Shown one piece after another: positions 5,264 through 61,770 of a DNA stretch of 64,000 nucleotides. The notes beneath the pieces are model-generated. The model made no database searches. It was not told the origin of the DNA and worked only from the letters and a program-made list of their open reading frames with translations. The first letter of the stretch is position 1. Every line of letters begins with the position of its first letter. Source of the DNA: Escherichia coli. GTDB lineage: Bacteria; Pseudomonadota; Gammaproteobacteria; Enterobacterales; Enterobacteriaceae. Position numbers and translations under genes: made by a program. The stretch lies in NCBI RefSeq assembly GCF_003334335.1, contig NZ_QOWQ01000002.1. The stretch is one strand, 5' to 3'.

Positions 5264-5468
5264 TATTACGACGCTGACCTGGCGGACTGCTGCCGTCAGG
5301 TCAATATGCTAAAAATCCCTTCATTTCTAATAACCCTATAATTAATCAACGAAATTATAATGTTTCTAAAATTAGAATATAATTTATAAACATTATTTAA
5401 ATGTTGTTACTTAAGTGTTACCGTTGATGCCGCGCAAATCTCACCTGCAATAAAGCGACTAAAAGTAA

Positions 5469-7127
<1,659 letters not shown>

Positions 7128-7132
7128 TGATG

Positions 7133-7165
7133 CGCCACATCCGGCATGGTATGCCGGATGTGGCG
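7133..7165 (+). terminator. perfect 15-bp inverted repeat hairpin immediately after mqo stop (possible terminator / mRNA 3' stabiliser)
   Basis: cgccacatccggcat-ggt-atgccggatgtggcg; no T-run, so assignment as terminator is tentative. Confidence 0.4.
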
Positions 7166-7167
7166 TA

Positions 7168-8290: not shown

Positions 8291-8293
8291 AGT

Positions 8294-8782
8294 TTAGCGA
8301 ACTACCGCGTTGTCAATTTTCTCTTCCGCCTTCCAGACGCGGTACTTCACATCTACATTGTCTGGCGTATACACCACGATCGGCAGCTTGCTGTTGTAAC
8401 GCAGCATTCCAGCATCGCCCAGATACGCGGTGACAAATTTCTTCTCTTTCTTGCCATCCGGGCAGGCCATCATCGTTGAAACCGGGGAACTGACTTTATC
8501 AAAGACATAATAATCATAGCCCCAGCCTTCCAGCGTTTTGTTTTCCAGCTTCCCGCCGAGACGATGCAAATTGCAATCGACTTCCAGCGTCTGACCGATT
8601 AACAGTTCTACTTTCAGGGTAGATTCATCTTCTTGCGGGGTTAACTGAATCACCTGACGCTTCATCCCTTTTTCAGCTTGTGGATAAGGCGCGATTTTTT
8701 CCAGTGGCTGGACGCTTTCTGCCGCCCAGGCGGAAGTGGTAGCGAAAGCGGCAAACAATACTGCAGGTAGAATGGTCTTCAT
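8294..8782 (-). CDS. eco: serine protease inhibitor ecotin
   Basis: Track ORF 8294..8803; I place the start at the internal ATG 8782 ([20 protein letters not shown] signal peptide, 162 aa) with AGGAA Shine-Dalgarno upstream. Confidence 0.9.
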
Positions 8783-8965
8783 TTTTTTGCTTTCCTTCTT
8801 CATTTATAGGTTTTCACCGATGATGTCGCTGAAGGTTAACATATTCATCAGATTTATTAATTTGCTTTATGAATAACTTAAAGAACATTCAGACAATTTT
8901 ACCTGCTCTTTTAGTGTTAAATTCTAATGAGAGAGCAAACCAGCAGAAATATCTCTGGTGAATCA

Positions 8966-8992
8966 ATCGCTATATAAATATATTTATAACCA
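8966..8992 (+). promoter_or_regulatory. putative ModE operator upstream of napF
   Basis: atcgctatataaatatatttataacc, TATAT-type ModE-like repeat centred ~134 bp upstream of my inferred napF transcription start; consistent with the ModE site I recall for the napF promoter. Confidence 0.4.
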
Positions 8993-9041
8993 TTTGAAAT
9001 GTGAGCAAAAGCCCGTTTTTGCCACGCTTCCCGCCACTCTT

Positions 9042-9055
9042 TTGATCCTGCTACA
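9042..9055 (+). promoter_or_regulatory. putative FNR site of napF promoter
   Basis: ttgat-cctg-ctaca (consensus TTGAT-N4-ATCAA, weak second half-site), centred 20 bp upstream of the NarP site as I recall for napF. Confidence 0.45.
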
Positions 9056-9060
9056 GGTTT

Positions 9061-9076
9061 TACCCCGATCGGGGTA
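9061..9076 (+). promoter_or_regulatory. NarP/NarL 7-2-7 heptamer pair of napF promoter
   Basis: perfect palindrome TACCCCG-AT-CGGGGTA matching the TACYYMT heptamer consensus; candidate -10 TAATAT at 9097-9102. Confidence 0.65.
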
Positions 9077-9189
9077 TGCATCTTTGACACATCCTTTAAT
9101 ATCTTAGCGGCTATAAAAATGGCTTATTAATTATGCGGTTTATTTGGTCGCTCTCAATTTTCAGAGCGCGTTAATGATGGAAGGTCAAT

Positions 9190-9684
9190 GTGAAGATTGA
9201 TGCATCCCGTCGGGGCATACTCACTGGTCGCTGGCGCAAAGCCAGTAACGGTATCCGTCCGCCCTGGTCCGGTGATGAATCTCATTTTCTGACCCATTGC
9301 ACCCGCTGCGACGCCTGTATTAATGCTTGTGAAAACAACATTCTGCAACGCGGCGCGGGCGGCTATCCGAGCGTTAATTTCAAAAATAACGAGTGCAGCT
9401 TCTGTTACGCCTGCGCGCAGGCTTGCCCCGAATCGCTATTTTCTCCGCGCCACACCAGGGCCTGGGATTTGCAGTTCACCATCGGGGACGCGTGCCTGGC
9501 GTATCAGTCAGTTGAATGCCGCCGCTGTCAGGATAGCTGTGAGCCAATGGCAATTATCTTTCGCCCGACGCTCTCCGGGATCTACCAGCCGCAACTTAAT
9601 AGCCAACTTTGCAACGGATGTGGAGCATGTGCAGCCAGCTGTCCGGTATCAGCCATAACTGCGGAGTATCTCCATGCACACTAA
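9190..9684 (+). CDS. napF: ferredoxin-type protein NapF
   Basis: 164-aa ORF with GTG start, multiple CxxCxxCxxxCP 4Fe-4S motifs; first gene of nap operon. Confidence 0.93.
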   Translation: MKIDASRRGILTGRWRKASNGIRPPWSGDESHFLTHCTRCDACINACENNILQRGAGGYPSVNFKNNECSFCYACAQACPESLFSPRHTRAWDLQFTIGDACLAYQSVECRRCQDSCEPMAIIFRPTLSGIYQPQLNSQLCNGCGACAASCPVSAITAEYLHAH

Positions 9685-9937
9685 CTGGCAAGTTTGCAGC
9701 CTGGTCGTGCAGGCCAAAAGCGAACGAATTTCAGACATCAGCACCCAACTGAACGCCTTTCCCGGCTGTGAAGTTGCTGTCAGCGACGCGCCGAGCGGTC
9801 AGTTGATTGTGGTGGTGGAAGCAGAAGACAGCGAAACGCTGATCCAAACCATTGAGTCAGTACGCAACGTAGAGGGCGTGCTGGCGGTGTCGCTGGTTTA
9901 TCACCAGCAGGAAGAGCAAGGTGAGGAAACACCATGA
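9674..9937 (+). CDS. napD: NapA chaperone NapD
   Basis: 87-aa [18 protein letters not shown]...; overlaps napF end and napA start. Confidence 0.93.
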
Positions 9938-12420
9938 AACTCAGTCGTCGTAGCTTTATGAAAGCTAACGCCGTTGCGGCCGCTGCGGCGGCTGCCGGTC
10001 TCAGCGTGCCGGGCGTTGCCCGCGCCGTTGTTGGTCAGCAGGAAGCCATCAAATGGGATAAAGCGCCGTGCCGTTTCTGCGGTACTGGTTGCGGCGTTCT
10101 GGTCGGAACGCAGCAGGGACGTGTGGTGGCCTGTCAGGGCGACCCGGACGCACCGGTTAACCGTGGCCTGAACTGCATTAAGGGCTATTTCCTGCCCAAA
10201 ATCATGTACGGTAAAGACCGTTTGACGCAGCCGCTGCTGCGTATGAAAAACGGTAAATATGACAAAGAAGGCGAATTTACCCCAATCACCTGGGATCAGG
10301 CCTTCGATGTGATGGAAGAGAAATTCAAAACCGCCCTGAAAGAAAAAGGGCCGGAATCGATCGGTATGTTCGGTTCTGGTCAGTGGACTATCTGGGAAGG
10401 TTATGCCGCGTCCAAGCTGTTTAAAGCGGGCTTCCGTTCGAACAACATCGACCCGAACGCGCGTCACTGTATGGCGTCGGCAGTAGTTGGCTTTATGCGT
10501 ACCTTTGGTATGGATGAGCCGATGGGCTGCTATGACGACATCGAGCAGGCTGACGCGTTTGTGCTGTGGGGCGCAAACATGGCGGAAATGCACCCGATCC
10601 TCTGGTCGCGCATCACTAACCGTCGTCTCTCTAACCAGAACGTCACCGTGGCGGTGCTTTCTACCTACCAGCATCGTAGCTTCGAGCTGGCGGATAACGG
10701 CATCATCTTTACGCCGCAATCTGACCTGGTGATCCTGAACTACATCGCCAACTATATCATTCAAAACAATGCGATAAATCAGGACTTCTTCAGCAAGCAC
10801 GTTAACCTGCGCAAAGGGGCGACGGACATCGGCTACGGTTTACGTCCGACCCATCCGCTGGAAAAAGCAGCGAAGAATCCGGGTTCTGACGCCTCCGAAC
10901 CGATGAGCTTTGAAGATTACAAAGCCTTCGTTGCCGAGTATACGCTGGAAAAAACTGCCGAAATGACCGGCGTGCCGAAAGACCAGTTAGAACAACTGGC
11001 GCAGCTGTATGCCGATCCGAACAAGAAAGTCATCTCCTACTGGACGATGGGCTTCAACCAGCATACTCGTGGCGTGTGGGCTAACAACCTGGTCTACAAC
11101 CTGCACCTGCTGACCGGCAAAATTTCCCAGCCGGGTTGCGGTCCGTTCTCCCTGACCGGGCAACCTTCTGCGTGTGGTACTGCGCGTGAAGTGGGCACCT
11201 TTGCTCACCGTCTGCCTGCGGACATGGTGGTGACCAACGAGAAACACCGTGATATCTGCGAGAAGAAGTGGAATATCCCGAGCGGCACCATTCCGGCGAA
11301 AATCGGTCTGCACGCGGTGGCACAAGACCGTGCGCTGAAAGACGGCAAACTGAATGTTTACTGGACCATGTGTACCAACAACATGCAGGCCGGGCCGAAC
11401 ATCAATGAAGAGCGTATGCCGGGCTGGCGCGATCCGCGCAACTTCATCATCGTCTCCGATCCGTATCCGACAGTCAGTGCGCTGGCCGCCGACTTGATCC
11501 TGCCGACCGCAATGTGGGTAGAGAAAGAGGGCGCTTACGGTAACGCCGAACGCCGTACTCAGTTCTGGCGTCAACAGGTACAGGCACCGGGCGAAGCGAA
11601 ATCGGATCTCTGGCAGTTAGTCCAGTTCTCCCGCCGCTTCAAAACTGAAGAAGTATGGCCGGAAGATCTGCTGGCGAAGAAACCGGAACTGCGTGGCAAA
11701 ACGCTGTACGAAGTGCTGTATGCCACACCGGAAGTGAGCAAATTCCCGGTATCCGAACTGGCGGAAGATCAGCTGAACGATGAATCCCGCGAGCTGGGCT
11801 TCTATCTGCAAAAAGGGCTGTTCGAAGAGTACGCATGGTTTGGTCGCGGTCACGGTCACGATCTGGCACCGTTCGATGACTACCACAAAGCGCGCGGTCT
11901 GCGCTGGCCGGTGGTGAACGGTAAAGAAACGCAGTGGCGTTACAGCGAAGGTAACGACCCGTACGTGAAAGCGGGCGAAGGCTATAAGTTCTACGGTAAA
12001 CCGGATGGCAAAGCGGTGATCTTCGCACTGCCATTCGAACCGGCGGCGGAAGCACCGGATGAAGAGTACGACCTGTGGCTCTCTACCGGACGCGTTCTGG
12101 AGCACTGGCACACCGGCAGTATGACTCGCCGTGTACCAGAACTGCACCGCGCCTTCCCGGAAGCGGTCCTGTTTATTCACCCGCTGGATGCGAAAGCGCG
12201 CGATCTGCGCCGTGGCGACAAAGTGAAAGTGGTTTCTCGCCGTGGCGAAGTGATCTCGATTGTTGAAACGCGCGGTCGTAACCGTCCGCCACAGGGCCTG
12301 GTGTACATGCCGTTCTTCGACGCCGCACAGTTGGTTAACAAACTGACGCTGGATGCGACCGATCCGCTCTCGAAAGAGACGGACTTCAAGAAGTGCGCGG
12401 TCAAACTGGAGAAGGTGTAA
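9934..12420 (+). CDS. napA: periplasmic nitrate reductase catalytic subunit NapA
   Basis: 828-aa ORF with twin-arginine signal ([28 protein letters not shown]) and molybdopterin oxidoreductase Cys cluster CRFCGTGCG. Confidence 0.96.
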
Positions 12421-35189: not shown

Positions 35190-36215
35190 CTACACCGCCT
35201 TATTAGGATCAAATGCGTCGCGGACGGCTTCACCAATAAAGATCAGCAAAGACAATAATATCGCCACCGACAAGAAGGCGGTGATCCCAAGCCACGGGGC
35301 CTGAAGGTTATTTTTCCCTTGTAACAGCAGTTCACCGAGTGACGGTGAACCGAGCGGTAGACCGAAGCCGAGGAAATCGAGCGAGGTCAGGGTGGTTATC
35401 GAACTACATAAAATAAACGGTAAAAAGGTGAGGGTCGCGACCATGGCATTAGGCAACATATGACGCAGGATGATACTGCGATCGCTGACGCCAAGCGCCT
35501 GTGCCGCACGAATGTAGTCGAAATTACGAGTACGTAAAAACTCCGCCCGCACCACGCCGACCAGACTCATCCAGCCAAACAAGACAGTAATTGCCAGCAG
35601 CCACCAGAAGTTAGGCTGTACGACGCTGGAAAGTAAAATAATCAAAAACAGCGTCGGCATCCCCGACCATACTTCAATAAAGCGTTGTCCCCAGAGATCG
35701 ACTTTACCGCCGTAATAGCCTTGTAGCGCCCCCGCCAGCACGCCCATCACGCTGGAACAGAGAGTCAGCATCAGGCCAAACAGAACCGAGATCCGCGTGC
35801 CATAGAGAATGCGTGCCAGCACATCGCCGCCGTTGGCATCCGTTCCCAGCCAGTTTTGCCGGGAGGGTGGAGAAGGGAAGGGCTTATCGGTAGCAAAGTT
35901 GATACTGGTAGCACCAAAGCGAATCGGTGCCCACAGTACCCAGCCGTTATTTTCCAGCCGTTGTTTCAGCCACGGGTCCTGATAATCAGCCTGACTTGCC
36001 AGCGGGCCGCCAAAATCGCTTTCGCTGTAGTTTTTCAATAACGGGAAATACCAACTGCCGTCATAACGCACCAGCAACGGTTTATCGTTGGCGATAAGTT
36101 CAGAACACAAACTCAAACCAAACAAGACGAGGAAAATCCATAACGACCAGTAGCCGCGACGGTTATGACGAAAACGCGCCCAACGGGCCTGATTGACGGG
36201 GCTGAGTCGCGACAT
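35190..36215 (-). CDS. yejE: ABC transporter permease YejE
   Basis: 341-aa membrane ORF; stop is adjacent to yejF start. Confidence 0.92.
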   Translation of the reverse strand: MSRLSPVNQARWARFRHNRRGYWSLWIFLVLFGLSLCSELIANDKPLLVRYDGSWYFPLLKNYSESDFGGPLASQADYQDPWLKQRLENNGWVLWAPIRFGATSINFATDKPFPSPPSRQNWLGTDANGGDVLARILYGTRISVLFGLMLTLCSSVMGVLAGALQGYYGGKVDLWGQRFIEVWSGMPTLFLIILLSSVVQPNFWWLLAITVLFGWMSLVGVVRAEFLRTRNFDYIRAAQALGVSDRSIILRHMLPNAMVATLTFLPFILCSSITTLTSLDFLGFGLPLGSPSLGELLLQGKNNLQAPWLGITAFLSVAILLSLLIFIGEAVRDAFDPNKAV

Positions 36216-37309
36216 TAACGTCCCTCAAAATCAATACGCGGATCAACCAGCGTATAGCTGATATCACTGACAATATTCAGCAGCAGGCCAATCAGGGTGA
36301 AAATATACAAGGTACCAAACATTACAGGATAATCGCGCGAGACGGTCGCTTCGTAGCCCAGTAAGCCCAGACCATTGAGTGAAAACATCACCTCAATCAG
36401 CAGCGAGCCGGTAAAAAACATGCTGATAAACGTCGCCGGAAAACCGGCAATCACCAGCAGCATGGCGTTGCGGAACACATGTTTCCAGAGAATATTTTTT
36501 TCACTTACCCCTTTCGCACGCGCGGTCACCACGTATTGCTTGCGCACTTCATCAAGGAATGAGTTTTTTGTCAGCATGGTCAGCGCCGCAAAGCCACCAA
36601 TCACTGTCGCCAGCACCGGCAGCGTGATATGCCACAGATAATCGGTGATTTTCTGATACCACGGCAGCGAATCAAAGTTAGCGGAAACCAGGCCGCGTAG
36701 AGGGAACAGGTCGAAATAGCTGCCGCCCGCGAAGAAGACAATCAGCAGGATGGCAAACAAAAAGGCCGGAATGGCGTAGCCGATGATGATAAATGCGCTA
36801 CTCCAGACGTCAAAGCGGCTCCCATTATAAACAGCTTTGCGAATGCCTAACGGAATCGACACCAGATAGATAATCAGCGTGCTCCACAATCCGAGGGTGA
36901 TGGAAACCGGCAGACTGTCTTTAATCAGCGTCAGCACCGAGGCGCTGCGAAACAGGCTATCGCCAAAATCAAAGCGGATGTAGTCCCAGAGCATTTTGAA
37001 GTAACGTTCGTGGATCGGCTTATCAAAACCGTAGCGATGAGTGATCTCAGCGATCACTTCTGGATCTAATCCGCGTCCGCCACGGTAATTACTGTCGCTG
37101 ATATTGCCGACACCCGTTTGCGCATGGCTGGCACGAACACCTTCACCGCCTGCGCCGGGTAATACTCCGGCATTACCAAACTCAATGGCGGCGATGGCCT
37201 GGTCGACCGGACCGCCAGGCGCAATTTGCACGATGAAAAAGTTGATGGTGATAATCGCCCATAATGTTGGGATCACCAGCAACAGACGGCGAATCAGGTA
37301 AGCGCCCAT
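36215..37309 (-). CDS. yejB: ABC transporter permease YejB
   Basis: 364-aa membrane ORF; 1-nt overlap with yejE. Confidence 0.92.
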
Positions 37310-50077: not shown

Positions 50078-51769
50078 ATGAAAACGCTGCTGATTATTGA
50101 CGCTAATCTCGGTCAGGCACGCGCCTATATGGCGAAGACCCTGCTGGGCGCGGCGGCGCGAAAAGCAAAACTGGAAATCATCGACAATCCGAACGACGCT
50201 GAAATGGCGATTGTTCTCGGTGATTCCATCCCGAACGACAGCGCGCTGAACGGTAAAAATGTCTGGCTGGGCGATATTTCCCGGGCAGTTGCGCACCCTG
50301 AGCTGTTCCTGAGTGAAGCCAAAGGCCATGCGAAACCTTACACTGCGCCGGTCGCTGCGACAGCACCAGTTGCCGCCAGCGGTCCGAAACGCGTAGTTGC
50401 GGTGACTGCTTGCCCGACTGGCGTAGCACACACCTTTATGGCGGCTGAAGCCATTGAAACCGAAGCGAAAAAACGTGGCTGGTGGGTGAAAGTTGAAACC
50501 CGTGGTTCTGTTGGCGCGGGTAATGCAATCACTCCCGAAGAAGTCGCAGCAGCGGATCTGGTGATTGTGGCGGCAGATATCGAAGTGGATCTGGCGAAAT
50601 TTGCTGGTAAACCGATGTATCGTACCTCTACCGGTCTGGCGCTGAAGAAAACCGCGCAGGAACTGGATAAAGCGGTTGCTGAAGCAACGCCGTATGAACC
50701 GGCGGGCAAAGCTCAAACGGCGACCACTGAAAGTAAGAAAGAGAGTGCAGGCGCATACCGTCACTTGCTGACGGGCGTTTCTTACATGCTGCCGATGGTC
50801 GTTGCAGGTGGTCTGTGTATCGCGCTTTCTTTTGCTTTTGGTATCGAAGCGTTTAAAGAGCCGGGTACGTTGGCTGCGGCGCTGATGCAGATTGGTGGTG
50901 GTTCAGCCTTTGCGCTGATGGTGCCGGTACTGGCAGGTTATATTGCCTTTTCCATTGCCGATCGTCCGGGCCTCACTCCGGGTCTGATTGGCGGTATGCT
51001 GGCGGTCAGCACCGGTTCTGGCTTCATTGGTGGTATTATTGCGGGCTTCCTGGCTGGTTACATTGCGAAGTTAATCAGTACGCAATTGAAACTGCCACAG
51101 AGTATGGAGGCGCTGAAACCGATCCTGATCATTCCGCTAATTTCCAGTCTGGTGGTCGGTCTGGCGATGATCTACCTGATCGGTAAACCAGTTGCTGGCA
51201 TTCTCGAAGGGCTGACTCACTGGCTGCAGACCATGGGGACTGCGAATGCGGTTCTGCTGGGGGCGATCCTCGGTGGCATGATGTGTACTGACATGGGCGG
51301 TCCGGTAAACAAAGCAGCGTACGCATTCGGTGTGGGTCTGCTGAGTACTCAAACCTATGGCCCGATGGCGGCGATTATGGCGGCAGGTATGGTGCCACCG
51401 CTGGCAATGGGTCTGGCAACAATGGTGGCGCGTCGCAAATTCGACAAAGCGCAGCAGGAAGGTGGCAAAGCCGCTCTGGTATTGGGACTGTGCTTCATTT
51501 CGGAAGGTGCAATTCCGTTTGCTGCTCGTGATCCGATGCGTGTGCTGCCGTGCTGTATCGTGGGTGGGGCGCTGACTGGCGCAATCTCAATGGCGATTGG
51601 TGCGAAACTGATGGCACCGCACGGTGGTCTGTTTGTTCTGCTGATCCCTGGCGCTATTACGCCGGTATTGGGTTACCTAGTAGCAATTATTGCCGGTACG
51701 CTGGTGGCGGGTTTGGCCTATGCCTTCCTGAAACGTCCGGAAGTGGACGCAGTAGCGAAAGCAGCGTAA
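50078..51769 (+). CDS. fruA: fructose-specific PTS IIB'BC component
   Basis: 563-aa ORF with two IIB-like regions and polytopic IIC domain. Confidence 0.95.
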   Translation: MKTLLIIDANLGQARAYMAKTLLGAAARKAKLEIIDNPNDAEMAIVLGDSIPNDSALNGKNVWLGDISRAVAHPELFLSEAKGHAKPYTAPVAATAPVAASGPKRVVAVTACPTGVAHTFMAAEAIETEAKKRGWWVKVETRGSVGAGNAITPEEVAAADLVIVAADIEVDLAKFAGKPMYRTSTGLALKKTAQELDKAVAEATPYEPAGKAQTATTESKKESAGAYRHLLTGVSYMLPMVVAGGLCIALSFAFGIEAFKEPGTLAAALMQIGGGSAFALMVPVLAGYIAFSIADRPGLTPGLIGGMLAVSTGSGFIGGIIAGFLAGYIAKLISTQLKLPQSMEALKPILIIPLISSLVVGLAMIYLIGKPVAGILEGLTHWLQTMGTANAVLLGAILGGMMCTDMGGPVNKAAYAFGVGLLSTQTYGPMAAIMAAGMVPPLAMGLATMVARRKFDKAQQEGGKAALVLGLCFISEGAIPFAARDPMRVLPCCIVGGALTGAISMAIGAKLMAPHGGLFVLLIPGAITPVLGYLVAIIAGTLVAGLAYAFLKRPEVDAVAKAA

Positions 51770-51778
51770 TAAAAGGTG

Positions 51779-51811
51779 TGTTACAGGGCAGAAATTTCCT
51801 GTCCTGTAACA
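51779..51811 (+). terminator. stem-loop immediately after fruA (possible terminator)
   Basis: tgttacagg-...-cctgtaaca inverted repeat 10 nt after fruA stop; weak T-run. Confidence 0.4.
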
Positions 51812-51926
51812 TTTGATGAGCGCAAAGAGAATGACCGGTTTGTGAATGTAATTTTATGAATTTAAATGGTTTTATCTTTCAGTAGAAACTTCAAACGTTC
51901 ATCAAACACTCAGGTTATTTCCTCAA

Positions 51927-51952
51927 GGGCAGATTATTTTCTGCCCTTTTTT
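51927..51952 (+). terminator. rho-independent terminator downstream of fruA
   Basis: gggcag-attatttt-ctgccc followed by TTTTTT. Confidence 0.75.
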
Positions 51953-52191
51953 ATTGTTCTGTTCTGTGCATCCCGTCACAAATTCCTCGCTTTTGTAATT
52001 CAGGCATTTAATCGCATTTTGTGAGCCTGCTCAAATCTGCCCATTTTGCCTCTCTGGCGGTAATTTACTTTACGTAAAACATGCATACTATGAGCACATG
52101 TTTAAATATGAACACATGTTTAAACCGTCTTTGCAGTATCTATATTCTTGTGGATTGACAGGGTTGGTAATTTTTTACCAGAGGACGTGCT

Positions 52192-53133
52192 ATGCGCGAA
52201 AAGGATTATGTCGTAATTATAGGTTCGGCGAATATTGATGTCGCCGGATATTCACATGAATCATTAAATTATGCGGATTCAAATCCAGGTAAAATAAAAT
52301 TTACGCCTGGTGGAGTAGGGCGCAATATTGCACAAAACCTGGCGTTGCTGGGTAACAAAGCCTGGCTACTGAGCGCCGTAGGCAGTGATTTTTATGGTCA
52401 ATCGCTGCTAACGCAAACCAATCAATCTGGCGTTTATGTCGATAAATGCCTGATTGTGCCGGGAGAAAATACGTCGAGTTATTTATCATTACTCGATAAT
52501 ACCGGTGAAATGCTGGTTGCTATAAATGACATGAATATTAGCAACGCTATTACAGCTGAATATCTCGCACAGCACGGTGAATTTATTCAGAGGGCAAAGG
52601 TCATTGTCGCGGACTGTAATATCAGTGAAGAGGCACTGGCATGGATTCTGGATAATGCCGCCAACGTACCCGTATTTGTCGATCCGGTTTCGGCATGGAA
52701 ATGTGTCAAAGTGCGCGACCGTCTAAATCAGATCCACACTCTCAAGCCAAACCGCCTTGAAGCGGAAACCCTGAGTGGGATTGCGCTGTCAGGGCGTGAA
52801 GATGTGGCAAAAGTTGCTGCCTGGTTCCATCAACATGGCCTGAACCGACTGGTATTGAGCATGGGCGGCGACGGCGTTTATTACAGCGATATCAGCGGTG
52901 AAAGTGGCTGGTCTGCGCCGATCAAAACCAATGTTATTAATGTTACCGGAGCGGGCGATGCCATGATGGCGGGACTTGCTTCGTGTTGGGTAGACGGAAT
53001 GCCGTTTGCCGAATCTGTTCGTTTCGCACAGGGATGTTCGTCAATGGCGCTCTCCTGTGAATACACCAATAACCCCGATTTATCGATTGCCAACGTTATA
53101 TCGTTAGTGGAGAACGCAGAATGTCTGAATTAA
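52192..53133 (+). CDS. psuK: pseudouridine kinase
   Basis: 313-aa PfkB-family ORF MREKDYVVIIGSANIDVAG...GAGDAMMAG. Confidence 0.92.
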   Translation: MREKDYVVIIGSANIDVAGYSHESLNYADSNPGKIKFTPGGVGRNIAQNLALLGNKAWLLSAVGSDFYGQSLLTQTNQSGVYVDKCLIVPGENTSSYLSLLDNTGEMLVAINDMNISNAITAEYLAQHGEFIQRAKVIVADCNISEEALAWILDNAANVPVFVDPVSAWKCVKVRDRLNQIHTLKPNRLEAETLSGIALSGREDVAKVAAWFHQHGLNRLVLSMGGDGVYYSDISGESGWSAPIKTNVINVTGAGDAMMAGLASCWVDGMPFAESVRFAQGCSSMALSCEYTNNPDLSIANVISLVENAECLN

Positions 53134-54059
53134 AAATTTCCCCTGAATTATTACAAATTTCCCCGGAAGTGCAGGACGCTTTAAAAAACAAAAAACCGGT
53201 TGTGGCGCTGGAATCGACCATTATTTCTCACGGGATGCCGTTCCCACAAAATGCCCAGACCGCAATTGAAGTTGAAGAAACTATTCGTAAACAGGGCGCT
53301 GTACCTGCCACGATCGCCATTATTGGCGGCGTGATGAAAGTGGGGTTAAGCAAAGAAGAAATTGAATTACTGGGTCGTGAAGGGCATAACGTGACCAAAG
53401 TTAGTCGTCGCGATTTACCTTTTGTTGTTGCCGCCGGAAAAAATGGCGCAACCACTGTGGCTTCAACGATGATTATTGCGGCGCTTGCCGGAATTAAAGT
53501 ATTTGCCACCGGGGGAATTGGTGGTGTGCATCGCGGGGCGGAACATACCTTCGATATTTCTGCCGATTTGCAAGAACTGGCAAATACTAATGTCACCGTT
53601 GTTTGTGCCGGGGCGAAATCTATTCTCGATTTAGGATTAACCACTGAGTATTTAGAAACCTTCGGTGTGCCGTTAATTGGCTATCAGACTAAAGCGCTGC
53701 CTGCGTTTTTCTGCCGCACCAGCCCGTTTGACGTCAGCATTCGTCTCGACAGCGCCAGCGAAATTGCCCGTGCAATGGCGGTGAAATGGCAAAGCGGTCT
53801 GAACGGTGGCCTCGTGGTAGCGAACCCGATCCCGGAACAGTTTGCTATGCCGGAACACACTATCAATGCGGCGATCGATCAGGCGGTAGCTGAAGCTGAA
53901 GCTCAGGGAGTCATTGGTAAAGAAAGTACGCCATTCCTGCTGGCGCGCGTTGCTGAACTGACCGGCGGTGACAGCCTGAAATCCAACATCCAGCTGGTGT
54001 TCAACAACGCCATTCTGGCGAGCGAAATTGCCAAAGAATATCAGCGTCTCGCGGGTTAA
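53121..54059 (+). CDS. psuG: pseudouridine-5'-phosphate glycosidase
   Basis: 312-aa ORF MSELKISPELLQISPEVQDALKNKKPVVALESTIISHGMPFPQN...; overlaps psuK end. Confidence 0.92.
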   Translation: MSELKISPELLQISPEVQDALKNKKPVVALESTIISHGMPFPQNAQTAIEVEETIRKQGAVPATIAIIGGVMKVGLSKEEIELLGREGHNVTKVSRRDLPFVVAAGKNGATTVASTMIIAALAGIKVFATGGIGGVHRGAEHTFDISADLQELANTNVTVVCAGAKSILDLGLTTEYLETFGVPLIGYQTKALPAFFCRTSPFDVSIRLDSASEIARAMAVKWQSGLNGGLVVANPIPEQFAMPEHTINAAIDQAVAEAEAQGVIGKESTPFLLARVAELTGGDSLKSNIQLVFNNAILASEIAKEYQRLAG

Positions 54060-54152
54060 TTTCTGACGGGCAGAAAGCCGTCGCCCGTACTCATCAAGCA
54101 TACCAAAACCTGGCGCTGACGCCGGGTTTACCGGCATGAAGGGAAAATCATT

Positions 54153-55402
54153 ATGGATATAATGAGAAGTGTTGTGGGGATGGTGGTGTTACTGGCAATA
54201 GCATTTCTGTTGTCAGTGAATAAAAAGAGCATCAGTTTGCGCACGGTTGGAGCCGCACTGCTGCTGCAAATCGCTATTGGTGGCATCATGCTCTACTTCC
54301 CACCGGGAAAATGGGCAGTAGAACAGGCGGCATTAGGCGTTCATAAAGTGATGTCTTACAGTGATGCCGGTAGCGCCTTCATTTTTGGTTCGCTGGTTGG
54401 GCCGAAAATGGATGTCCTGTTTGACGGTGCGGGTTTTATCTTCGCCTTTCGCGTACTTCCGGCGATTATTTTCGTTACTGCGCTCATCAGTCTGCTGTAC
54501 TACATTGGCGTGATGGGGCTGCTGATTCGCATCCTTGGCAGCATTTTCCAGAAAGCCCTCAACATCAGCAAAATCGAATCTTTTGTTGCGGTTACTACTA
54601 TTTTCCTCGGGCAAAATGAGATCCCGGCGATCGTTAAACCGTTTATCGATCGCATGAATCGCAACGAGTTGTTTACCGCAATTTGTAGCGGGATGGCGTC
54701 CATTGCTGGTTCGATGATGATTGGTTATGCCGGAATGGGCGTACCAATTGACTACCTGTTAGCGGCATCGCTGATGGCGATCCCTGGCGGGATTTTGTTT
54801 GCACGTATTCTTAGCCCGGCAACCGAGCCTTCGCAGGTCACATTTGAAAATCTGTCGTTCAGCGAAACGCCGCCAAAAAGCTTTATCGAAGCGGCGGCGA
54901 GCGGTGCGATGACCGGGCTAAAAATCGCCGCGGTGTGGCGACGGTGGTAATGGCGTTTGTCGCAATTATTGCGCTGATCAACGGCATTATCGGCGGAATT
55001 GGCGGCTGGTTTGGTTTCGCCAATGCCTCTCTGGAAAGTATTTTTGGCTATGTGCTGGCACCGCTGGCGTGGATCATGGGTGTGGACTGGAGTGATGCCA
55101 ATCTTGCGGGTAGCCTGATTGGGCAGAAACTGGCGATTAACGAATTCGTCGCTTACCTGAGTTTCTCCCCATACCTGCAAACGGGCGGCACGCTGGAAGT
55201 GAAAACCATTGCGATTATCTCCTTTGCGCTTTGTGGTTTTGCTAACTTTGGTTCTATCGGTGTTGTCGTTGGCGCATTTTCGGCTATTTCGCCAAAACGC
55301 GCGCCGGAAATCGCCCAGCTTGGTTTACGGGCGCTGGCAGCAGCAACGCTTTCCAACCTGATGAGTGCGACTATTGCCGGGTTCTTTATTGGTCTGGCGT
55401 AA
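54153..55402 (+). pseudogene. psuT: NupC-family nucleoside (pseudouridine) transporter PsuT, apparently frameshifted
   Basis: Two overlapping ORFs 54153..54950 (265 aa) and 54935..55402 (155 aa) together span 1250 nt, one base short of an intact 416-aa gene; the paralog nupX reads gccgcaggtgtggca where psuT reads gccgcggtgtggcg (about 54927-54936). Confidence 0.7.
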
Positions 55403-55416
55403 TGCTCGATTTGTAG

Positions 55417-55449
55417 ACCGGATAAAACGTATTAAGCGTTGCATCCGGC
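55417..55449. repeat. REP element downstream of psuT
   Basis: gaccggataaaacgtattaagcgttgcatccggc palindrome. Confidence 0.75.
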
Positions 55450-55472
55450 AATCGCGCTATTGAAAATAATTT

Positions 55473-56132
55473 TTACTGCATCATCCCGGAGAATTTATTC
55501 TCCGGGTCCATCTCCAGCGCCAGTCCTGACAACTGCTTTCTGTTTTTAATGAGATACCCTTTCTTGCTTTTAATTAATAAACCGTCGTGAATGAACTGCG
55601 CGAGAACATATAAAAGATGTCGATAAGAAACGCCTAAATACTCTGCCGCTTGCGTATGCTTTTCGTGATAAAGATCACCTTCCTGCGAGAGTAATATAAA
55701 TGCTGCCAGGCGATTCACTAACGGAAATGATTGATTCTGAGTTAAAGAAACAATATTACGATAATTTTTATGACTTAAGGTGACGCAGAGTTTTCGTAAA
55801 AATAGCGTGTCGTTTAATAACAGCGGACGGTAATGTTTCATAGGGAGCGCAAGGCACCAACACTCTTCAATAGCCTGCACCGCACGCGGTTCATGGTCTT
55901 TATCGATTAACTCAATCTCGCCAATAAAACAGGGGGCGGCAAAGAAATCGATCAGCGACACGCGACCATTAGCTAGCGTGGCGTAAAGCCTGGCGCGGCC
56001 TCGCGTCAGGTAAAACAGCCAGGACGGCTGTTGCCCTTCCTGCACAATGTAGTCACGCGCTAAAAAATGAAACAGCCGCGTATCGGCTGAAACATCCGTT
56101 AAAAAGCAATCCTTAAACGCGGATTCACTCAT
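55473..56132 (-). CDS. yeiL: Crp/Fnr-family transcriptional regulator YeiL
   Basis: Track ORF 55473..56171; I use the ATG at 56132 ([11 protein letters not shown]..., 219 aa); cNMP-binding-like domain plus C-terminal HTH. Confidence 0.88.
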
Positions 56133-56300
56133 CAATTGCTGCTTAAGATCATTATTGTGGATTTCTTTCACGATGTTTATCCGCTATGAGATTTCTCATA
56201 TTTAGCATACGTACGCTGTTGTTAAGATTCAATCATCGGCCCGGTCGAATTTTCTTTGCTGTAGAAAAAATAACGCAACTGGAAACAGAGGAAATAAACA

Positions 56301-57242
56301 ATGGAAAAGAGAAAAATTATTCTGGATTGTGATCCGGGTCATGATGATGCTATTGCTATAATGATGGCGGCGAAACATCCGGCAATAGATTTATTAGGCA
56401 TCACTATTGTAGCGGGTAATCAGACGCTTGATAAAACATTAATTAATGGCCTGAATGTTTGCCAGAAACTGGAGATTAATGTTCCGGTTTATGCGGGGAT
56501 GCCGCAGCCCATTATGCGTCAACAAATCGTTGCCGATAATATTCACGGTGAAACCGGACTGGATGGCCCGGTATTCGAGCCGCTGACCCGCCAGGCAGAA
56601 AGCACTCATGCGGTGAAATATATCATTGATACCCTGATGGCAAGCGATGGCGATATCACTCTGGTGCCGGTTGGTCCGCTTTCAAATATCGCGGTGGCAA
56701 TGCGTATGCAACCCGCGATCCTGCCCAAAATCCGTGAAATTGTGCTAATGGGCGGCGCTTACGGTACAGGCAACTTCACGCCATCTGCCGAGTTCAACAT
56801 CTTTGCCGACCCGGAAGCCGCACGCGTAGTGTTCACCTCCGGCGTTCCATTAGTGATGATGGGCCTCGATCTCACCAACCAGACCGTTTGCACCCCGGAC
56901 GTGATTGCTCGGATGGAAAGGGCAGGCGGCCCCGCCGGAGAGCTGTTCAGCGACATCATGAACTTCACTCTCAAAACGCAGTTCGAAAACTACGGCCTTG
57001 CTGGCGGCCCGGTGCACGACGCCACCTGCATCGGTTATCTGATTAACCCTGATGGCATTAAAACCCAGGAGATGTACGTCGAAGTGGACGTCAACAGTGG
57101 CCCTTGCTATGGGCGTACCGTCTGCGACGAGCTGGGCGTTCTTGGCAAGCCCGCCAATACCAAAGTCGGCATCACTATTGATACAGACTGGTTCTGGGGA
57201 TTAGTCGAAGAGTGCGTGCGCGGCTACATCAAAACCCATTAA
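56301..57242 (+). CDS. rihB: pyrimidine-specific ribonucleoside hydrolase RihB
   Basis: 313-aa ORF with N-terminal DCDPGHDD nucleoside hydrolase motif. Confidence 0.93.
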
Positions 57243-57341
57243 GTGTTGATAACAAGCCGGGCCGGTATCGCAAGATGCAGGCCTGGCTATTTCTGATGGG
57301 CAGAAAGCCGTCGCCCAATATGACATGAAGAGATAATCACT

Positions 57342-58592
57342 ATGGATGTCATGAGAAGTGTTCTGGGAATGGTGGTATTGCTGACGATTGCGTTTTTACT
57401 GTCAGTAAACAAGAAGAAGATCAGCCTGCGTACCGTTGGCGCGGCGTTAGTGTTACAGGTCGTGATTGGCGGCATTATGCTTTGGTTACCGCCAGGGCGT
57501 TGGGTCGCTGAAAAAGTCGCTTTTGGCGTGCATAAAGTGATGGCGTACAGCGACGCGGGTAGCGCATTTATCTTCGGTTCTCTGGTCGGACCGAAAATGG
57601 ATACCTTATTTGATGGTGCAGGATTTATCTTTGGTTTCAGGGTGTTACCGGCAATTATCTTCGTCACCGCGCTGGTGAGTATTCTCTACTACATCGGTGT
57701 GATGGGGATTTTAATTCGAATTCTCGGCGGTATCTTCCAGAAAGCATTAAATATCAGCAAGATCGAGTCATTCGTCGCGGTCACCACCATTTTCCTCGGG
57801 CAAAACGAAATTCCGGCAATCGTCAAACCCTTTATCGATCGTCTGAATCGCAATGAATTATTTACAGCGATTTGTAGTGGCATGGCCTCGATTGCTGGTT
57901 CGACAATGATTGGTTACGCCGCACTGGGCGTGCCTGTGGAATATCTGCTGGCGGCATCATTAATGGCGATCCCTGGCGGGATCTTGTTTGCCCGCCTGTT
58001 AAGCCCGGCAACGGAATCTTCGCAGGTTTCCTTTAATAACCTCTCTTTCACCGAAACACCGCCAAAAAGCATTATTGAAGCCGCTGCGACAGGGGCAATG
58101 ACCGGGCTGAAAATCGCCGCAGGTGTGGCAACAGTGGTGATGGCATTTGTTGCAATAATTGCGTTGATTAACGGTATTATCGGCGGCGTTGGTGGCTGGT
58201 TTGGTTTTGAACATGCCTCGCTGGAGTCCATTTTAGGTTACCTGCTGGCTCCACTGGCGTGGGTGATGGGTGTGGACTGGAGTGATGCGAATCTTGCCGG
58301 GAGTTTGATTGGACAGAAACTGGCAATAAATGAATTTGTCGCTTATCTCAATTTCTCACCCTATCTGCAAACGGCTGGCACTCTCGATGCTAAAACTGTG
58401 GCGATTATTTCCTTCGCGTTGTGCGGTTTCGCTAACTTTGGTTCTATCGGGGTGGTGGTGGGGGCGTTTTCTGCGGTTGCGCCACACCGTGCGCCGGAAA
58501 TCGCCCAGCTTGGTTTACGGGCGCTGGCGGCGGCGACGCTTTCCAACTTGATGAGTGCGACCATTGCCGGGTTCTTTATTGGTTTAGCTTGA
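57342..58592 (+). CDS. nupX: NupC-family nucleoside transporter NupX
   Basis: 416-aa polytopic ORF, roughly 85% identical by eye to the reconstructed PsuT. Confidence 0.92.
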   Translation: MDVMRSVLGMVVLLTIAFLLSVNKKKISLRTVGAALVLQVVIGGIMLWLPPGRWVAEKVAFGVHKVMAYSDAGSAFIFGSLVGPKMDTLFDGAGFIFGFRVLPAIIFVTALVSILYYIGVMGILIRILGGIFQKALNISKIESFVAVTTIFLGQNEIPAIVKPFIDRLNRNELFTAICSGMASIAGSTMIGYAALGVPVEYLLAASLMAIPGGILFARLLSPATESSQVSFNNLSFTETPPKSIIEAAATGAMTGLKIAAGVATVVMAFVAIIALINGIIGGVGGWFGFEHASLESILGYLLAPLAWVMGVDWSDANLAGSLIGQKLAINEFVAYLNFSPYLQTAGTLDAKTVAIISFALCGFANFGSIGVVVGAFSAVAPHRAPEIAQLGLRALAAATLSNLMSATIAGFFIGLA

Positions 58593-58600
58593 GTGTCATT

Positions 58601-58691
58601 GCCTGATGCGCAAGCTTATCAGGCCTACATTTACTTGCTGAAATTGCCTGATTTGTAGGCCGGATAAGACGCGTTAAGCGTCGCATCCGGC
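58601..58691. repeat. BIME: two REP palindromes downstream of nupX
   Basis: gcctgatgcgcaagcttatcaggcctac (58601-58628) and gtaggccggataagacgcgttaagcgtcgcatccggc (58655-58691). Confidence 0.85.
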
Positions 58692-58698
58692 AACATTG

Positions 58699-59787
58699 TT
58701 ACACCATTGGCACTAATGAAAGCGCGTTATCGGCAGACAGGGTAGGGTTGTTTAAGCTGCCGCTGGCGCGCGAAATTGCCGCGCAGGCTACCGCAAAACG
58801 GGCGCTGTCGCGGAAACTGTATCCTTCAAGAAAGCTATATACCAGGCCCGCCATAAAACCATCGTCAGCACCAAAACTGTCTACTGTCGTATGCGCTGGC
58901 GCGGTCAGCAAAAATTGTTCTCCATCCTTTTCGCTGCAATAAACTGACTCATCGGGCAAATAAACAAACAGTTGCTGAACACCTTGCTGATGCAATGCAT
59001 TCACTGCGGTATTACGGTCAGCATCGCTGGTGATCGCCTGTCCCCATAAAATTTCCAGCTCCGGTAAAGTGGGTTTCAGGGTGTGAATATGCGCCAGCCA
59101 GTGTTTGATTTTGCCCGCTTTGAATTCTGAAACGGTATCGACAAACACCGGGATTTCATCAGCGAGGGTAAAGACCCATTCCAGCGCCTCGGCTGTCAGG
59201 TTGCAATCAGCCAGTACCACGCCCGCATGACGAAGTAAATCGCGCGACCCGTTCAGTAGTTGCGGTGTCAACTGTTCCAGCAGATGGGTATCGTTAATCG
59301 CCAGCACGGTTTGATCGTCTCGATTGGCAATTGCCAGATACGTCGATGTGCTTTGACCATGCAAACGAACGCAGCCGGAGACATTCACGCCGGCACGGCG
59401 CGTTTCTTCCAGGAGCATTTCGCCATAAAAGTCATCGCCAATCACTGAAAGCAAATGGACGTCACGGCCTAACAGCGCCAGATTGTGGGCGATGTTGCGT
59501 CCCACGCCGCCCGCTGAGCAATGAATTGTACCGGGATGAGAAGCCGATTGCGGGTAACGGATATCCGCCATCCCGCGAATATCCATATTGATTGTCCCCA
59601 CCACTACGCAGTATTCCTGCTCGGTGAGAATGTAACCTTTGCCTTTAATCCGGCCTTTGCGCATTAAATCCATAATATGCGCCGCAACGCGCGAACGGCT
59701 GATTTGCAGCATGTCCGCAATTTCGTTCTGCTGAATCAGCGGGTTACGCCGTAAAATTGCAAGGATCTCCTTTTCCCGGTTATTCAT
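58699..59787 (-). CDS. yeiI: HTH-containing PfkB-family sugar/nucleoside kinase YeiI
   Basis: 362-aa ORF; N-terminal HTH plus ribokinase-like domain (GGVGRNIAHNLALLG), paralogous to psuK. Confidence 0.9.
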   Translation of the reverse strand: MNNREKEILAILRRNPLIQQNEIADMLQISRSRVAAHIMDLMRKGRIKGKGYILTEQEYCVVVGTINMDIRGMADIRYPQSASHPGTIHCSAGGVGRNIAHNLALLGRDVHLLSVIGDDFYGEMLLEETRRAGVNVSGCVRLHGQSTSTYLAIANRDDQTVLAINDTHLLEQLTPQLLNGSRDLLRHAGVVLADCNLTAEALEWVFTLADEIPVFVDTVSEFKAGKIKHWLAHIHTLKPTLPELEILWGQAITSDADRNTAVNALHQQGVQQLFVYLPDESVYCSEKDGEQFLLTAPAHTTVDSFGADDGFMAGLVYSFLEGYSFRDSARFAVACAAISRASGSLNNPTLSADNALSLVPMV

Positions 59788-59789
59788 CT

Positions 59790-60647
59790 TCAGGCTACCG
59801 CTTTTTCAGTTTGTTGCGCTTTCAGCCAGGCGATCTCTTCTGCCCAGATATCCGGGTTGATGGTTTCGAGGATCAGCGGAATGCCGTCGAAACGGTCGTC
59901 CTGCATGATCCAGCGGAACGCATCATGACCGATATTGCCTTCACCGAGGCTATGATGGCGGTCAACGCGGCTGCCAAAGGTGCTTTTCGCATCGTTAAGG
60001 TGCATCCCGCGCAGATACTTAAAGCCGACAGTACGGGCAAAATCCGCGAATGTTTTCTCGCATTCGGCTGGAGTACGCAAATCATACCCGGCAGCGAAAG
60101 CATGGCAGGTATCAATGCAGACGCCGACGCGGGATTTATCTTCCACGCCGTCGATAATCGCCGCGAGATGTTCGAATTTAAACCCTAAGTTACTGCCCTG
60201 ACCGGCGGTGTTTTCTATCACCGCTGTCACACCTTGAGTTTTATCCAGCGCAATGTTGATGGATTCGGCAATACGCGCAAGGCAATCCTCTTCTGAAATC
60301 TGCATCAGATGGCTGCCAGGGTGGAAGTTGAGCAAAGAAAGCCCCAGCTGTTCGCAACGCTGCATTTCATCTATAAAGGCATCGCGCGATTTTTCCAGAG
60401 CTTCAGTGACCGGATGTCCGAGGTTAATCAGATAACTGTCGTGGGGAAGAATTTGCGCCGATGTGTAGTGATATTTTTCACAGGCGGCTTTGAATTCATC
60501 GATGGTTTGCGTCGTGAGCGGTGCGGCACGCCACTGACGTTGGTTTTTGGTGAACAAGGCAAACGCGGTTGCGTCGATTTCGGCGGCGCGAATTGCGGCA
60601 TTTGCCAGACCGCCAGCAGCACTAACGTGCGCTCCAATGTATTTCAT
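59790..60647 (-). CDS. nfo: endonuclease IV (AP endonuclease)
   Basis: 285-aa [42 protein letters not shown]... Confidence 0.95.
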
Positions 60648-60720
60648 GCGAGGACTCCTGTTAAACCCGCTGGAGGAAAACGGTAATGATAGCGGGTTAA
60701 CAGGAGCAAGATGTAGTGGT

Positions 60721-61770
60721 TTATGCGATGACGCTTTGAATCACATAGTTAATCGCACCACCACCAACAATCAGCCAGGCAAACAGTACCAGTGCCATCA
60801 GCAGAGGTTTCGCCCCAGCTTTTTTCAGCGCGCTGACGTGAGTGGTCAGACCCAGCGCCGCCATCGCCATTGCCAGCAGGAAGGTATCCAGCGTTACCAG
60901 CATGTTCACCACGCTCTGCGGTAACAGGTGGAACGAGTTAAAGATGGCAACTACGATGAACAAGATGGCAAACCACGGAATAGTGATTTTGCTTTTCTCG
61001 CCGCTGTTCGCCCCAGACAGCTGTTTAACACGCGCCGCCAGCAGGATGAGGAACGGAGCCAGCATCATCACGCGCAGCATTTTGGAAATAACTGCTGCGT
61101 TTTCCGCATCCGGGCTGATGGCATGACCTGCCGCCACCACCTGCGCCACTTCGTGCACAGTAGAACCAATGTAGATACCGAAAGTTTCCGGACTAAACCA
61201 TTGAGACATCAGCGGATATATCGCCGGGTAGAGGAAAATCGCGACGGTCCCGAAGATAACAACGGTTGCAACAGCCACGGTTACTTTACTGGCTTCCGCT
61301 TTCACTACCGGCTCAGTCGCCAGTACCGCGGCAGCACCACAGATACTGCTACCGGCACCGATCAACCAGCTGGTGTGCTTATCCAGACCAAACACTTTCT
61401 GCCCCAGGAAGCAAGCCAGCAGGAAGGTACTGGACAGCGTCAACACGTCAATGATGATCCCACTGATACCGACATCGGCAATTTGCGAGAACGTCAGACG
61501 GAAGCCATAAAGAATGATACCCAGACGTAATAAATATTGCTTGGCAAACAGCACACCACCGTCACAGCTTTTCCAGATGTGCGGATAGATGGTGTTGCCT
61601 AAAACCATCCCCAACAAGATTGCGAGGGTGAGGGCACTAAACCCGGCACCCGCAACCGCGGGAATGGAACCACCCCACAGGGCGACCCCGGTGATAACTG
61701 CACTCAGGGCTAACCCCGGAATAAAATGCCACAGTGTACGATGTTGTTTCTGTAAGGTGATATTCGTCAT
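60721..61770 (-). CDS. yeiH: UPF0324 inner membrane protein YeiH
   Basis: 349-aa polytopic membrane ORF. Confidence 0.9.

Follow-up and report, generated by a model that had tools for sequence, protein, structure and literature searches.

In Escherichia coli, pseudouridine is catabolized by the products of the psuKGT operon (Preumont et al. 2008; PsuK structures 7vkp and related entries), and the ribose and base contacts of the kinase have been defined in the EcPUKI structures (PMC9061257). No regulator of the psu operon or of pseudouridine catabolism was described in the literature that we searched. In this study, we analyzed a 64,000-nucleotide stretch of E. coli DNA (contig NZ_QOWQ01000002.1; this whole stretch is hereafter called the window), in which the same psuK, psuG and psuT genes are found together with yeiL, rihB, nupX and yeiI at positions 52192–59787. 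The locus and its genes are already known. What appears to be new, and unpublished, is two testable predicted assignments, YeiI to psuKGT and YeiL to rihB-nupX. We propose that the interval consists of nested modules, in which YeiI would be a kinase-dead regulator of psuKGT and YeiL would act on rihB-nupX, and we consider this reading, taken as a whole, to be probable. YeiI and YeiL are among the last uncharacterized transcription-factor candidates of E. coli K-12, and for each of them a specific target is now predicted, together with a likely class of ligand and an exactly located candidate DNA site. Furthermore, the tempting but wrong assignment of yeiI to a module with rihB and nupX is corrected.

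The other genes of the locus have been described to different extents. The kinetics of RihB are summarized in PMC10526354. PsuT and NupX, like the CNT symporters (NupC/NupG-type, nucleoside:H+), exceed the TIGR00804 cutoff of 442 (518 bits for the intact PsuT and 500 bits for NupX). In contrast to NupC, they form a separate clade with approximately 30% identity to it (PMC11241209), and their physiological substrates are weakly defined. In the same paper, transport of uridine and cytidine by NupX was weak, and PsuT did not take up uridine, cytidine or xanthosine. For YeiL, only autoregulation is on record in RegulonDB as far as it is quoted in PMC9308461, and the function is called unknown; a 2026 study found the YeiL protein to be unstable. 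YeiI and YeiL were left uncharacterized in PMC11241209, PMC9061257, PMC12506659 and PMC9308461, YeiI explicitly so in papers from 2022 and 2025. The literature thus agrees with the initial annotation of this DNA, which called the role of YeiL and the rihB-nupX-yeiI side incompletely defined.

Two nested modules between fruA and nfo

The region is the fruA-nfo interval of E. coli, with fruBKA on its upstream side and nfo on its downstream side. An 8-kb query had many matches among complete genomes, with 100% identity except for one gap. The RefSeq gene names along the interval are psuK, psuG, psuT, yeiL, rihB, nupX, yeiI and nfo, and the gene identities and coordinates given in the initial annotation agree with the open reading frames (ORFs) and with RefSeq. 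NCBIfam profiles placed each protein in its expected family above the cutoff, except PsuG, for which there is no NCBIfam model. The genes and the repetitive extragenic palindromic (REP) elements, including a bacterial interspersed mosaic element (BIME), are as follows.

52192–53133, plus strand: psuK, pseudouridine kinase (PfkB) without a helix-turn-helix (HTH) domain; NF007355, 714 bits (cutoff 540); RefSeq.
53121–54059, plus strand: psuG, pseudouridine-5'-phosphate glycosidase, overlapping psuK by 13 nt; RefSeq; PF04227 in homologues.
54153–55402, plus strand: psuT, CNT-family transporter, frameshifted here; the intact allele is above the TIGR00804 cutoff.
55413–55449, minus strand: single REP.
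55473–56171, minus strand: yeiL, CRP/FNR-family regulator; NF007707, 419 bits (cutoff 180); PF00027 and PF13545.
56301–57242, plus strand: rihB, pyrimidine-preferring nucleoside hydrolase; NF007417, 727 bits (cutoff 459).
57342–58592, plus strand: nupX, CNT-family transporter, paralogue of psuT.
58601–58691: BIME made of two inverted REPs, 58601–58628 on the plus strand and 58655–58691 on the minus strand.
58699–59787, minus strand: yeiI, HTH_24 and PfkB-like domains; PF13412 and PF00294; NF007416.
59790–60647, minus strand: nfo, endonuclease IV; its stop is 2 nt upstream of the yeiI start.

Because yeiI is convergent to nupX and starts 2 nt past the nfo stop, it lies outside the rihB-nupX transcription unit; nfo and yeiI are probably co-transcribed, and the two are likewise adjacent in C. 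amalonaticus and in the six relatives listed below that have psuKGT and yeiI but lack the cassette. PsuT served as the query against species-representative genomes, the flanks of its matches were annotated by tblastn, and homologues of YeiI and YeiL were then traced to contigs. The distribution of psuKGT, the yeiL-rihB-nupX cassette and yeiI was as follows.

E. coli and Citrobacter amalonaticus: psuKGT present; cassette present, between psuT and yeiI; yeiI present.
E. albertii, three Citrobacter (freundii group), Leclercia and Enterobacter asburiae: psuKGT present; cassette absent; yeiI right after psuT.
Salmonella genomic island (not at nfo; next to relB/parE and transposases): psuKGT present; cassette absent; yeiI present.
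Salmonella enterica subsp. arizonae (fruA-cassette-nfo): psuKGT absent; cassette present, with nupX split; yeiI absent.
Hafnia alvei and Superficieibacter electus: psuKGT not in the locus; cassette at unrelated chromosomal sites; yeiI absent.

The yeiI gene accompanied psuKGT in all 10 loci with an HTH-less psuK, the Salmonella island included, and psuKGT adjoined yeiI-nfo without the cassette in the six relatives on the second line. In total, yeiI occurred without the cassette in seven loci, and the cassette without yeiI in three. This profile contradicts the initial annotation, which had grouped rihB, nupX and yeiI as one module. The Superficieibacter cassette is flanked by a type I restriction system and yjiA-cstA-tsr. 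In Enterococcus malodoratus (2797–6672 of its locus), a YeiL homologue (58% identity) is divergent from a hydrolase 76% identical to RihB, downstream of which lie a ribokinase-like PfkB gene and a Bmp/ABC nucleoside transporter. Thus yeiL is no bystander between two modules; in all lineages examined, Enterococcus included, it is paired with rihB and transcribed divergently from it. The invariant partners are yeiL and rihB, and yeiI co-occurs with, and is lost with, psuKGT. Therefore, yeiI belongs with psuKGT, and yeiL with rihB-nupX: the interval holds two modules of separate origin, yeiL-rihB-nupX being nested inside the psuKGT and yeiI unit. The 76% identity of the Enterococcus RihB is unusually high for a comparison of Firmicutes with Proteobacteria and implies an inter-phylum transfer of the yeiL-rihB pair.

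In S. arizonae the cassette is flanked by fruA and nfo, and in E. coli and C. amalonaticus by psuT and yeiI. It therefore probably occupied this site before these genera split and was then lost in several lineages.

YeiI looks like a kinase-dead relative of PsuK

The initial annotation noted a kinase motif common to psuK and yeiI. In the pairwise alignment, PsuK and the C-terminal domain of YeiI were 39% identical over 307 amino acids (E = 6e-76), with GGVGRNIA.NLALLG in common. YeiI has the signs of the PfkB family, namely PF00294 (identical cluster), the GGVGRNIA signature and PDB matches to PsuK and ribokinases, PsuK being its closest solved relative (E = 1e-66). On the PsuK equivalog NF007355, YeiI scored 256 bits, below the cutoff that PsuK exceeds. 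Unlike PsuK, with which it has the pseudouridine-contact residues in common, YeiI lacks GAGD and also NXXE, a criterion of the PfkB/ribokinase family.

In Hafnia, Serratia, Pasteurella and Shewanella, the psu operon begins with a gene for an HTH_24-PfkB fusion of 362–372 amino acids (HTH-PsuK). In the kinase tree, Enterobacteriaceae PsuK grouped with HTH-PsuK of other Enterobacterales and Pasteurella in 200 of 200 replicates, and YeiI was placed outside on a long branch. Since PsuK is nested with HTH-PsuK, it is the orthologue, from which the HTH was lost. Ancestrally, PsuK carried the HTH, and this fusion did not arise as something new on the rihB side; PsuK and YeiI parted far earlier than PsuT and NupX. 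The HTH of YeiI is 67–72% identical to that of HTH-PsuK from three orders; for the PfkB domain, the value is just 39–47%.

We aligned 14 PsuK and HTH-PsuK sequences with seven YeiI sequences (residues are numbered as in PsuK). YeiI retains 44 of the 67 columns that are invariant among the 14. N14, D16, S30, Y97, N112, N143, K170 and K185 are kept in all seven YeiI sequences; the catalytic D256 is kept in six and is Glu in the seventh. The retained residues include all ribose and base contacts of EcPUKI except M114, and the invariant S83, N196 and K223 of YeiI are the hallmark base contacts Ser/Thr30, Asn143 and Lys170 of PUKI (PMC9061257). At least six of the seven YeiI sequences are altered at N187 (the Asn of NXXE), at S223, G225 and G228 (the ATP-phosphate loop) and at G255 (the glycine of GAGD), and also at M114, D29, M107, A209 and L287. 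The N187 equivalent is T in five sequences, A in one and S in one. The anion-hole motif reads GADD: all YeiI have Asp in place of the Gly, and the Asp of the motif is preserved. The roles of NXXE (Mg/phosphate binding) and GAGD (anion hole) are established for the ribokinase family.

These changes were then surveyed in 98 near-full-length HTH-PfkB database representatives, 11 of which were unscorable for the anion-hole motif. GAD[DE] was found in 46, with T, A or S at the NXXE position in 45 of these and one unscored; GAGD was found in 41, with the NXXE Asn in 40 and Gly in one. Neither GAD[DE] with Asn nor GAGD with Thr occurred among the 98 representatives. Because the dN/dS value of yeiI is 0.07–0.08 (0.035 for the HTH portion), the gene is not decaying. 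In Enterobacteriaceae, HTH-PsuK is represented by psuK, which has the catalytic motifs without the HTH, and by yeiI, which has the HTH and the nucleoside pocket without the ATP and phosphoryl-transfer motifs. From these motifs, YeiI looks like a kinase-dead regulator of psuKGT, in which the loss of NXXE and GAGD would abolish kinase activity.

An N-terminal HTH joined to a kinase-like ligand-sensor domain recalls the logic of the ROK repressors (Mlc, NagC and XylR), BirA and NadR. HTH-PsuK may be likened to the bifunctional enzyme-repressor type and YeiI to the kinase-dead type. In contrast to ROK/ASKHA proteins, YeiI has the PfkB/ribokinase fold, and the analogy implies no homology.

Alternatively, YeiI might be an active bifunctional kinase-repressor for a substrate other than pseudouridine (e.g. 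a modified pyrimidine nucleoside), the motif changes reflecting another donor of the phosphoryl group or another arrangement of the metal. YeiI still has K238 and the catalytic Asp (D309), M114T and D29A lie beside the base pocket and could retune specificity, yeiI is under strong purifying selection, and the NCBIfam name is still sugar kinase. We nevertheless judge this idea unlikely: the 46 representatives of the clade have jointly lost the anion-hole Gly, the S-x-G-x-x-G loop and the NXXE Asn (NXXE scored in 45), the PsuK base and ribose contacts are unchanged except for M114, and mutation of psuK alone abolishes pseudouridine use, according to Preumont 2008 as quoted in PMC12506659. A kinase-dead YeiI is the reading that we prefer.

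Tandem boxes at the psuK promoter are a candidate YeiI operator

The following elements were found upstream of psuK.

51925–51948: fruA terminator, upstream of the psuK promoter.
52029–52044, plus strand: predicted CRP-type site TGTGAgcctgcTCAAA, TGTGA-N6-TCAAA, at about −61.5 from the predicted psuK start.
52064–52091, plus strand: predicted psuK sigma-70 promoter in a conserved block; −35 TTTACT at 52064–52069, 16-nt spacer, −10 TACTAT at 52086–52091.
52092–52103 and 52110–52121, plus strand: two palindromic boxes of 12 bp each in tandem, GAGCACATGTTT and GAACACATGTTT, with their starts 18 bp apart; candidate operator for HTH_24 (YeiI).

The CRP-type block was conserved in the alignment of eight Enterobacteriaceae psuK upstream regions, and its class I-like position suggests catabolite control. 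The boxes begin right after the −10 hexamer and would overlap the transcription start, so that a repressor geometry is predicted. This is the sole zero-mismatch pair in the window. Paired boxes are present upstream of psuK in all Enterobacteriaceae loci, including the divergent E. coli allele, and are degenerate in the Salmonella island.

We trained a palindromic position weight matrix (PWM) on the Enterobacteriaceae boxes only and ran it over whole outgroup loci of 13–21 kb. In five of five loci (Hafnia, Klebsiella sp., Serratia, Pasteurella and Shewanella), the top pair lay upstream of the HTH-psuK start by about 60 nt at most. Close relatives make up three of the five taxa, and it is the location of the hit, not its score, that carries the test. 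Thus, in other Gammaproteobacteria, a single HTH-fused PsuK heads the psu operon behind two 12-bp palindromic boxes. A single exact copy of GAACACATGTTT was also seen at 36473–36484, inside a minus-strand ORF (36215–37309) and without a convincing partner; it is probably due to chance.

The boxes might instead be bound by another conserved regulator, YeiI acting elsewhere (e.g. at nfo-yeiI or at unlinked genes). With their AT-rich half-sites, AAACA/TGTTT, the boxes bear a loose resemblance to the sites of KdgR-like sugar-acid regulators, and the link between YeiI and the boxes is a prediction from sequence. We hold such a regulator to be still less likely than an active YeiI kinase. In three orders the boxes accompany the psu operon, and no DNA-binding domain goes along with them apart from the HTH_24 of HTH-PsuK or YeiI, which in Enterobacteriaceae is found in YeiI only. 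Moreover, scanning of the window gave no box pair upstream of nfo, yeiL or rihB. We therefore keep YeiI as the predicted ligand of the boxes in what follows.

A palindrome between yeiL and rihB is a candidate YeiL site

YeiL has a cNMP-binding-like domain (PF00027) and a C-terminal HTH_Crp_2 domain (PF13545), which place it in the CRP/FNR family. Two elements in the yeiL-rihB spacer are relevant here.

56185–56200: perfect palindrome TATGAGAttTCTCATA, TATGA-N6-TCATA; candidate YeiL box.
56220–56228, plus strand: predicted extended −10 of rihB, TGtTAAGAT in E. coli and TGtTATGAT in other genera.

In the alignment, the palindrome lies within an 18-column block, TATGAGATTTCTCATATT, that is invariant across E. 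coli, C. amalonaticus, S. arizonae, Hafnia alvei and Superficieibacter. Enterococcus malodoratus has TGTGAGAatTCTCATA at the same position, and the palindrome is thus present in six lineages. No further YeiL box was found elsewhere in the window. The box is about 42 nt upstream of the start predicted from the extended −10. As in the case of the CRP/FNR local regulators (FNR, CRP and FLP), the candidate site is a 5-N6-5 palindrome, and a position near −42 is the classical class II geometry. In contrast, its half-site TATGA differs from those of CRP (TGTGA) and FNR (TTGAT). We infer that YeiL may act at this palindrome as a local regulator of rihB-nupX. In single E. coli strains (HCP17S3_I4 and BL12), IS1 insertions were observed, one in or between yeiL and rihB and one in psuK.

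Proposed model

The pseudouridine catabolism module would consist of psuK-psuG-psuT and the convergent yeiI. YeiI dimers would bind the retained boxes overlapping the predicted psuK start and thereby repress psuKGT. Binding of pseudouridine or its 5'-phosphate in the dead-kinase domain of YeiI would relieve this repression, and the CRP-type site at about −61.5 would add catabolite control. The second module, for pyrimidine nucleoside uptake and hydrolysis, would consist of yeiL divergent from rihB-nupX. On the TATGA-N6-TCATA palindrome, YeiL would activate rihB-nupX from a class II-like position and regulate its own gene. As for the origin of this second module, the yeiL-rihB pair is common to the cassette and Enterococcus, and nupX was copied from an Enterobacteriaceae psuT-type gene.

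A more far-reaching proposal is that HTH-PsuK was resolved in Enterobacteriaceae into the enzyme PsuK and a kinase-dead, pseudouridine-sensing repressor, YeiI, on the ancestral operator, with co-adapted or exchanged allele sets in E. coli. We put this proposal forward tentatively, as plausible but somewhat short of probable. If the reading of YeiI is true, the locus cleanly shows how, in nature, a bifunctional enzyme-regulator has been divided between an enzyme and a pseudoenzyme sensor. Control of the psu operon is relevant to pseudouridine production strains, which are already psuT-deleted and psuG-overexpressing; in such strains, psuT deletion lowers the re-uptake of pseudouridine (PMC13090712).

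Several points weigh against the model. The PWM pair scores were reached by 1–3 of 60 shuffles for three of the test loci. We infer the kinase loss of YeiI from its motifs, and a PROSITE-style PfkB signature tolerates D at the GAGD glycine. The deep position of YeiI in the neighbour-joining tree may be a long-branch effect, and YeiI may yet have arisen by duplication of HTH-PsuK inside Enterobacterales. RefSeq gives YeiL as 232 amino acids from a GTG start; the UniProt form is presumably 219 amino acids long and would begin at Met14. The position of the YeiL box relative to yeiL therefore depends on the true start codon. Furthermore, rihB is reportedly silent in K-12, a finding said to be that of Petersen and Moller in 2001. 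Finally, an ancestral cassette with later losses is preferred to repeated insertion at one site by parsimony.

The transporter is the one duplicate that arose within Enterobacteriaceae

The psuT and nupX genes had been described as highly similar from inspection by eye, and this was borne out: PsuT and NupX were 88% identical over 416 amino acids without gaps. At the nucleotide level, the identity was 78.8%, with dS 1.39 and dN 0.076; the E. coli pair is old at silent sites and strongly constrained. In the transporter tree, all NupX and the Enterobacteriaceae PsuT formed one clade in 100 of 100 bootstrap replicates, and PsuT of Hafnia, Serratia and Klebsiella sp. BIGb0407, which are just 70–74% identical, were outside it. 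Thus nupX arose within Enterobacteriaceae by copying of a psuT-type gene, and only the transporter is such a duplicate in this interval. NupX of Hafnia alvei clusters with the Enterobacteriaceae sequences, apart from Hafnia PsuT, which argues for horizontal spread of the yeiL-rihB-nupX cassette.

Recent gene conversion between psuT and nupX was not evident in E. coli, in which the longest exact run was 38 nt. In C. amalonaticus, psuT (4583–5833) and nupX (7734–8984 of its locus) show gene conversion: the nucleotide identity is 88%, the longest exact run found is 116 nt, and several 100-nt windows are 96–100% identical. Between E. coli and C. amalonaticus, the nupX orthologues share only 78% identity. 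Because of this conversion, support for NupX monophyly is weak. We also checked E. albertii psuT as a possible psuT/nupX deletion chimera; its informative sites were mostly psuT-like, with few nupX-like patches.

PsuG (PF04227) and RihB (PF01156) serve the glycosidic step with unrelated folds. Of the duplication with component swapping proposed in the initial annotation, two true paralogue pairs and the unrelated PsuG and RihB stand, and a single three-gene duplication is excluded. An ancient duplication of a kinase/glycosidic-enzyme/transporter module, with psuG swapped for rihB, an HTH fused to the kinase and yeiL regulating between the copies, would account for two of the three component pairs being paralogous and for pyrimidine nucleosides being handled on both sides, but it is highly improbable, since yeiI is found wherever psuKGT is and is missing from cassette-only loci, the HTH fusion is ancestral to PsuK, yeiI is on the opposite strand behind nfo, and the paralogue pairs are of very different age (88% versus 39% identity) and differ in their placement relative to the Hafnia and Serratia orthologues (100/100 and 200/200 replicates).

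In the window, psuT lacks one T after 54931 and is split into ORFs of 265 and 155 amino acids. This 1-nt deletion was found in 0 of 5,426 complete E. coli genomes. Because the identical 265-amino-acid truncated product is present on nine contigs from several public SRA read sets, the frameshift is a real, rare allele. The nupX gene of S. enterica subsp. arizonae (4460–5711 of its locus) is also split, into products of 64 and 350 amino acids; transporter pseudogenization is recurrent at this locus.

E. coli carries two allele sets of the pseudouridine genes

Among complete E. coli genomes, yeiI was 95–100% identical to the window allele in 3,363 and about 81% identical in 2,060, with none between. 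For psuK, the corresponding numbers were 4,213 (95–100%) and 1,201 (about 81%). In strain CFSAN064035, psuK with its promoter region, psuG, psuT and yeiI are all divergent, and yeiL, rihB, nfo and fruA are 97.6–99% identical. In strain NCCP 13905, just yeiI and the 3' end of nupX differ. Thus E. coli is dimorphic exactly at the genes of the pseudouridine module, at 51770–55402 and 58699–59787 of the window, with the alleles about 19% apart at the nucleotide level and yeiL-rihB near-identical. The minority alleles are approximately 91–92% identical to E. albertii, and therefore it is the K-12-type alleles of the window that branch deeply. Both allele types have kept the boxes and the HTH recognition region. 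The two sets hint at co-adapted or repeatedly exchanged alleles of an enzyme/regulator pair.

REP elements, base composition and plasmids

As the initial annotation stated, REP elements follow both transporter genes, a single REP after psuT and a BIME after nupX. This carries little weight because the window contains 20 REP-like elements in 64 kb. Related REPs flank the E. coli cassette, and a single hybrid-looking REP is found in E. albertii. The idea that direct repeats of REP are the scar of cassette insertion was dropped, because C. amalonaticus has the cassette with spacers of 24–34 bp, too short for a REP; the REPs are probably later arrivals at the locus. Elsewhere in the window, a long tandem BIME cluster (7220–8223) consists of alternating REP types, repeated nine times or more at intervals of about 113 bp.

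A foreign origin could not be judged from base composition, since only yeiL (44%) and psuK (47%) are slightly low in GC. An Rfam scan of 51500–61000 gave zero matches. Mobility of yeiL-rihB-nupX on plasmids was rejected: the plasmid matches were mislabelled chromosomes, or IncHI1A plasmids with psuKGT-yeiL beside ISVsa5. Large conjugative IncHI1A plasmids (pLAO65, 7058–11038) carry a captured psuK-psuG-psuT-yeiL segment adjoining ISVsa5, and their psuK is 99.9% identical to the minority chromosomal allele of E. coli.

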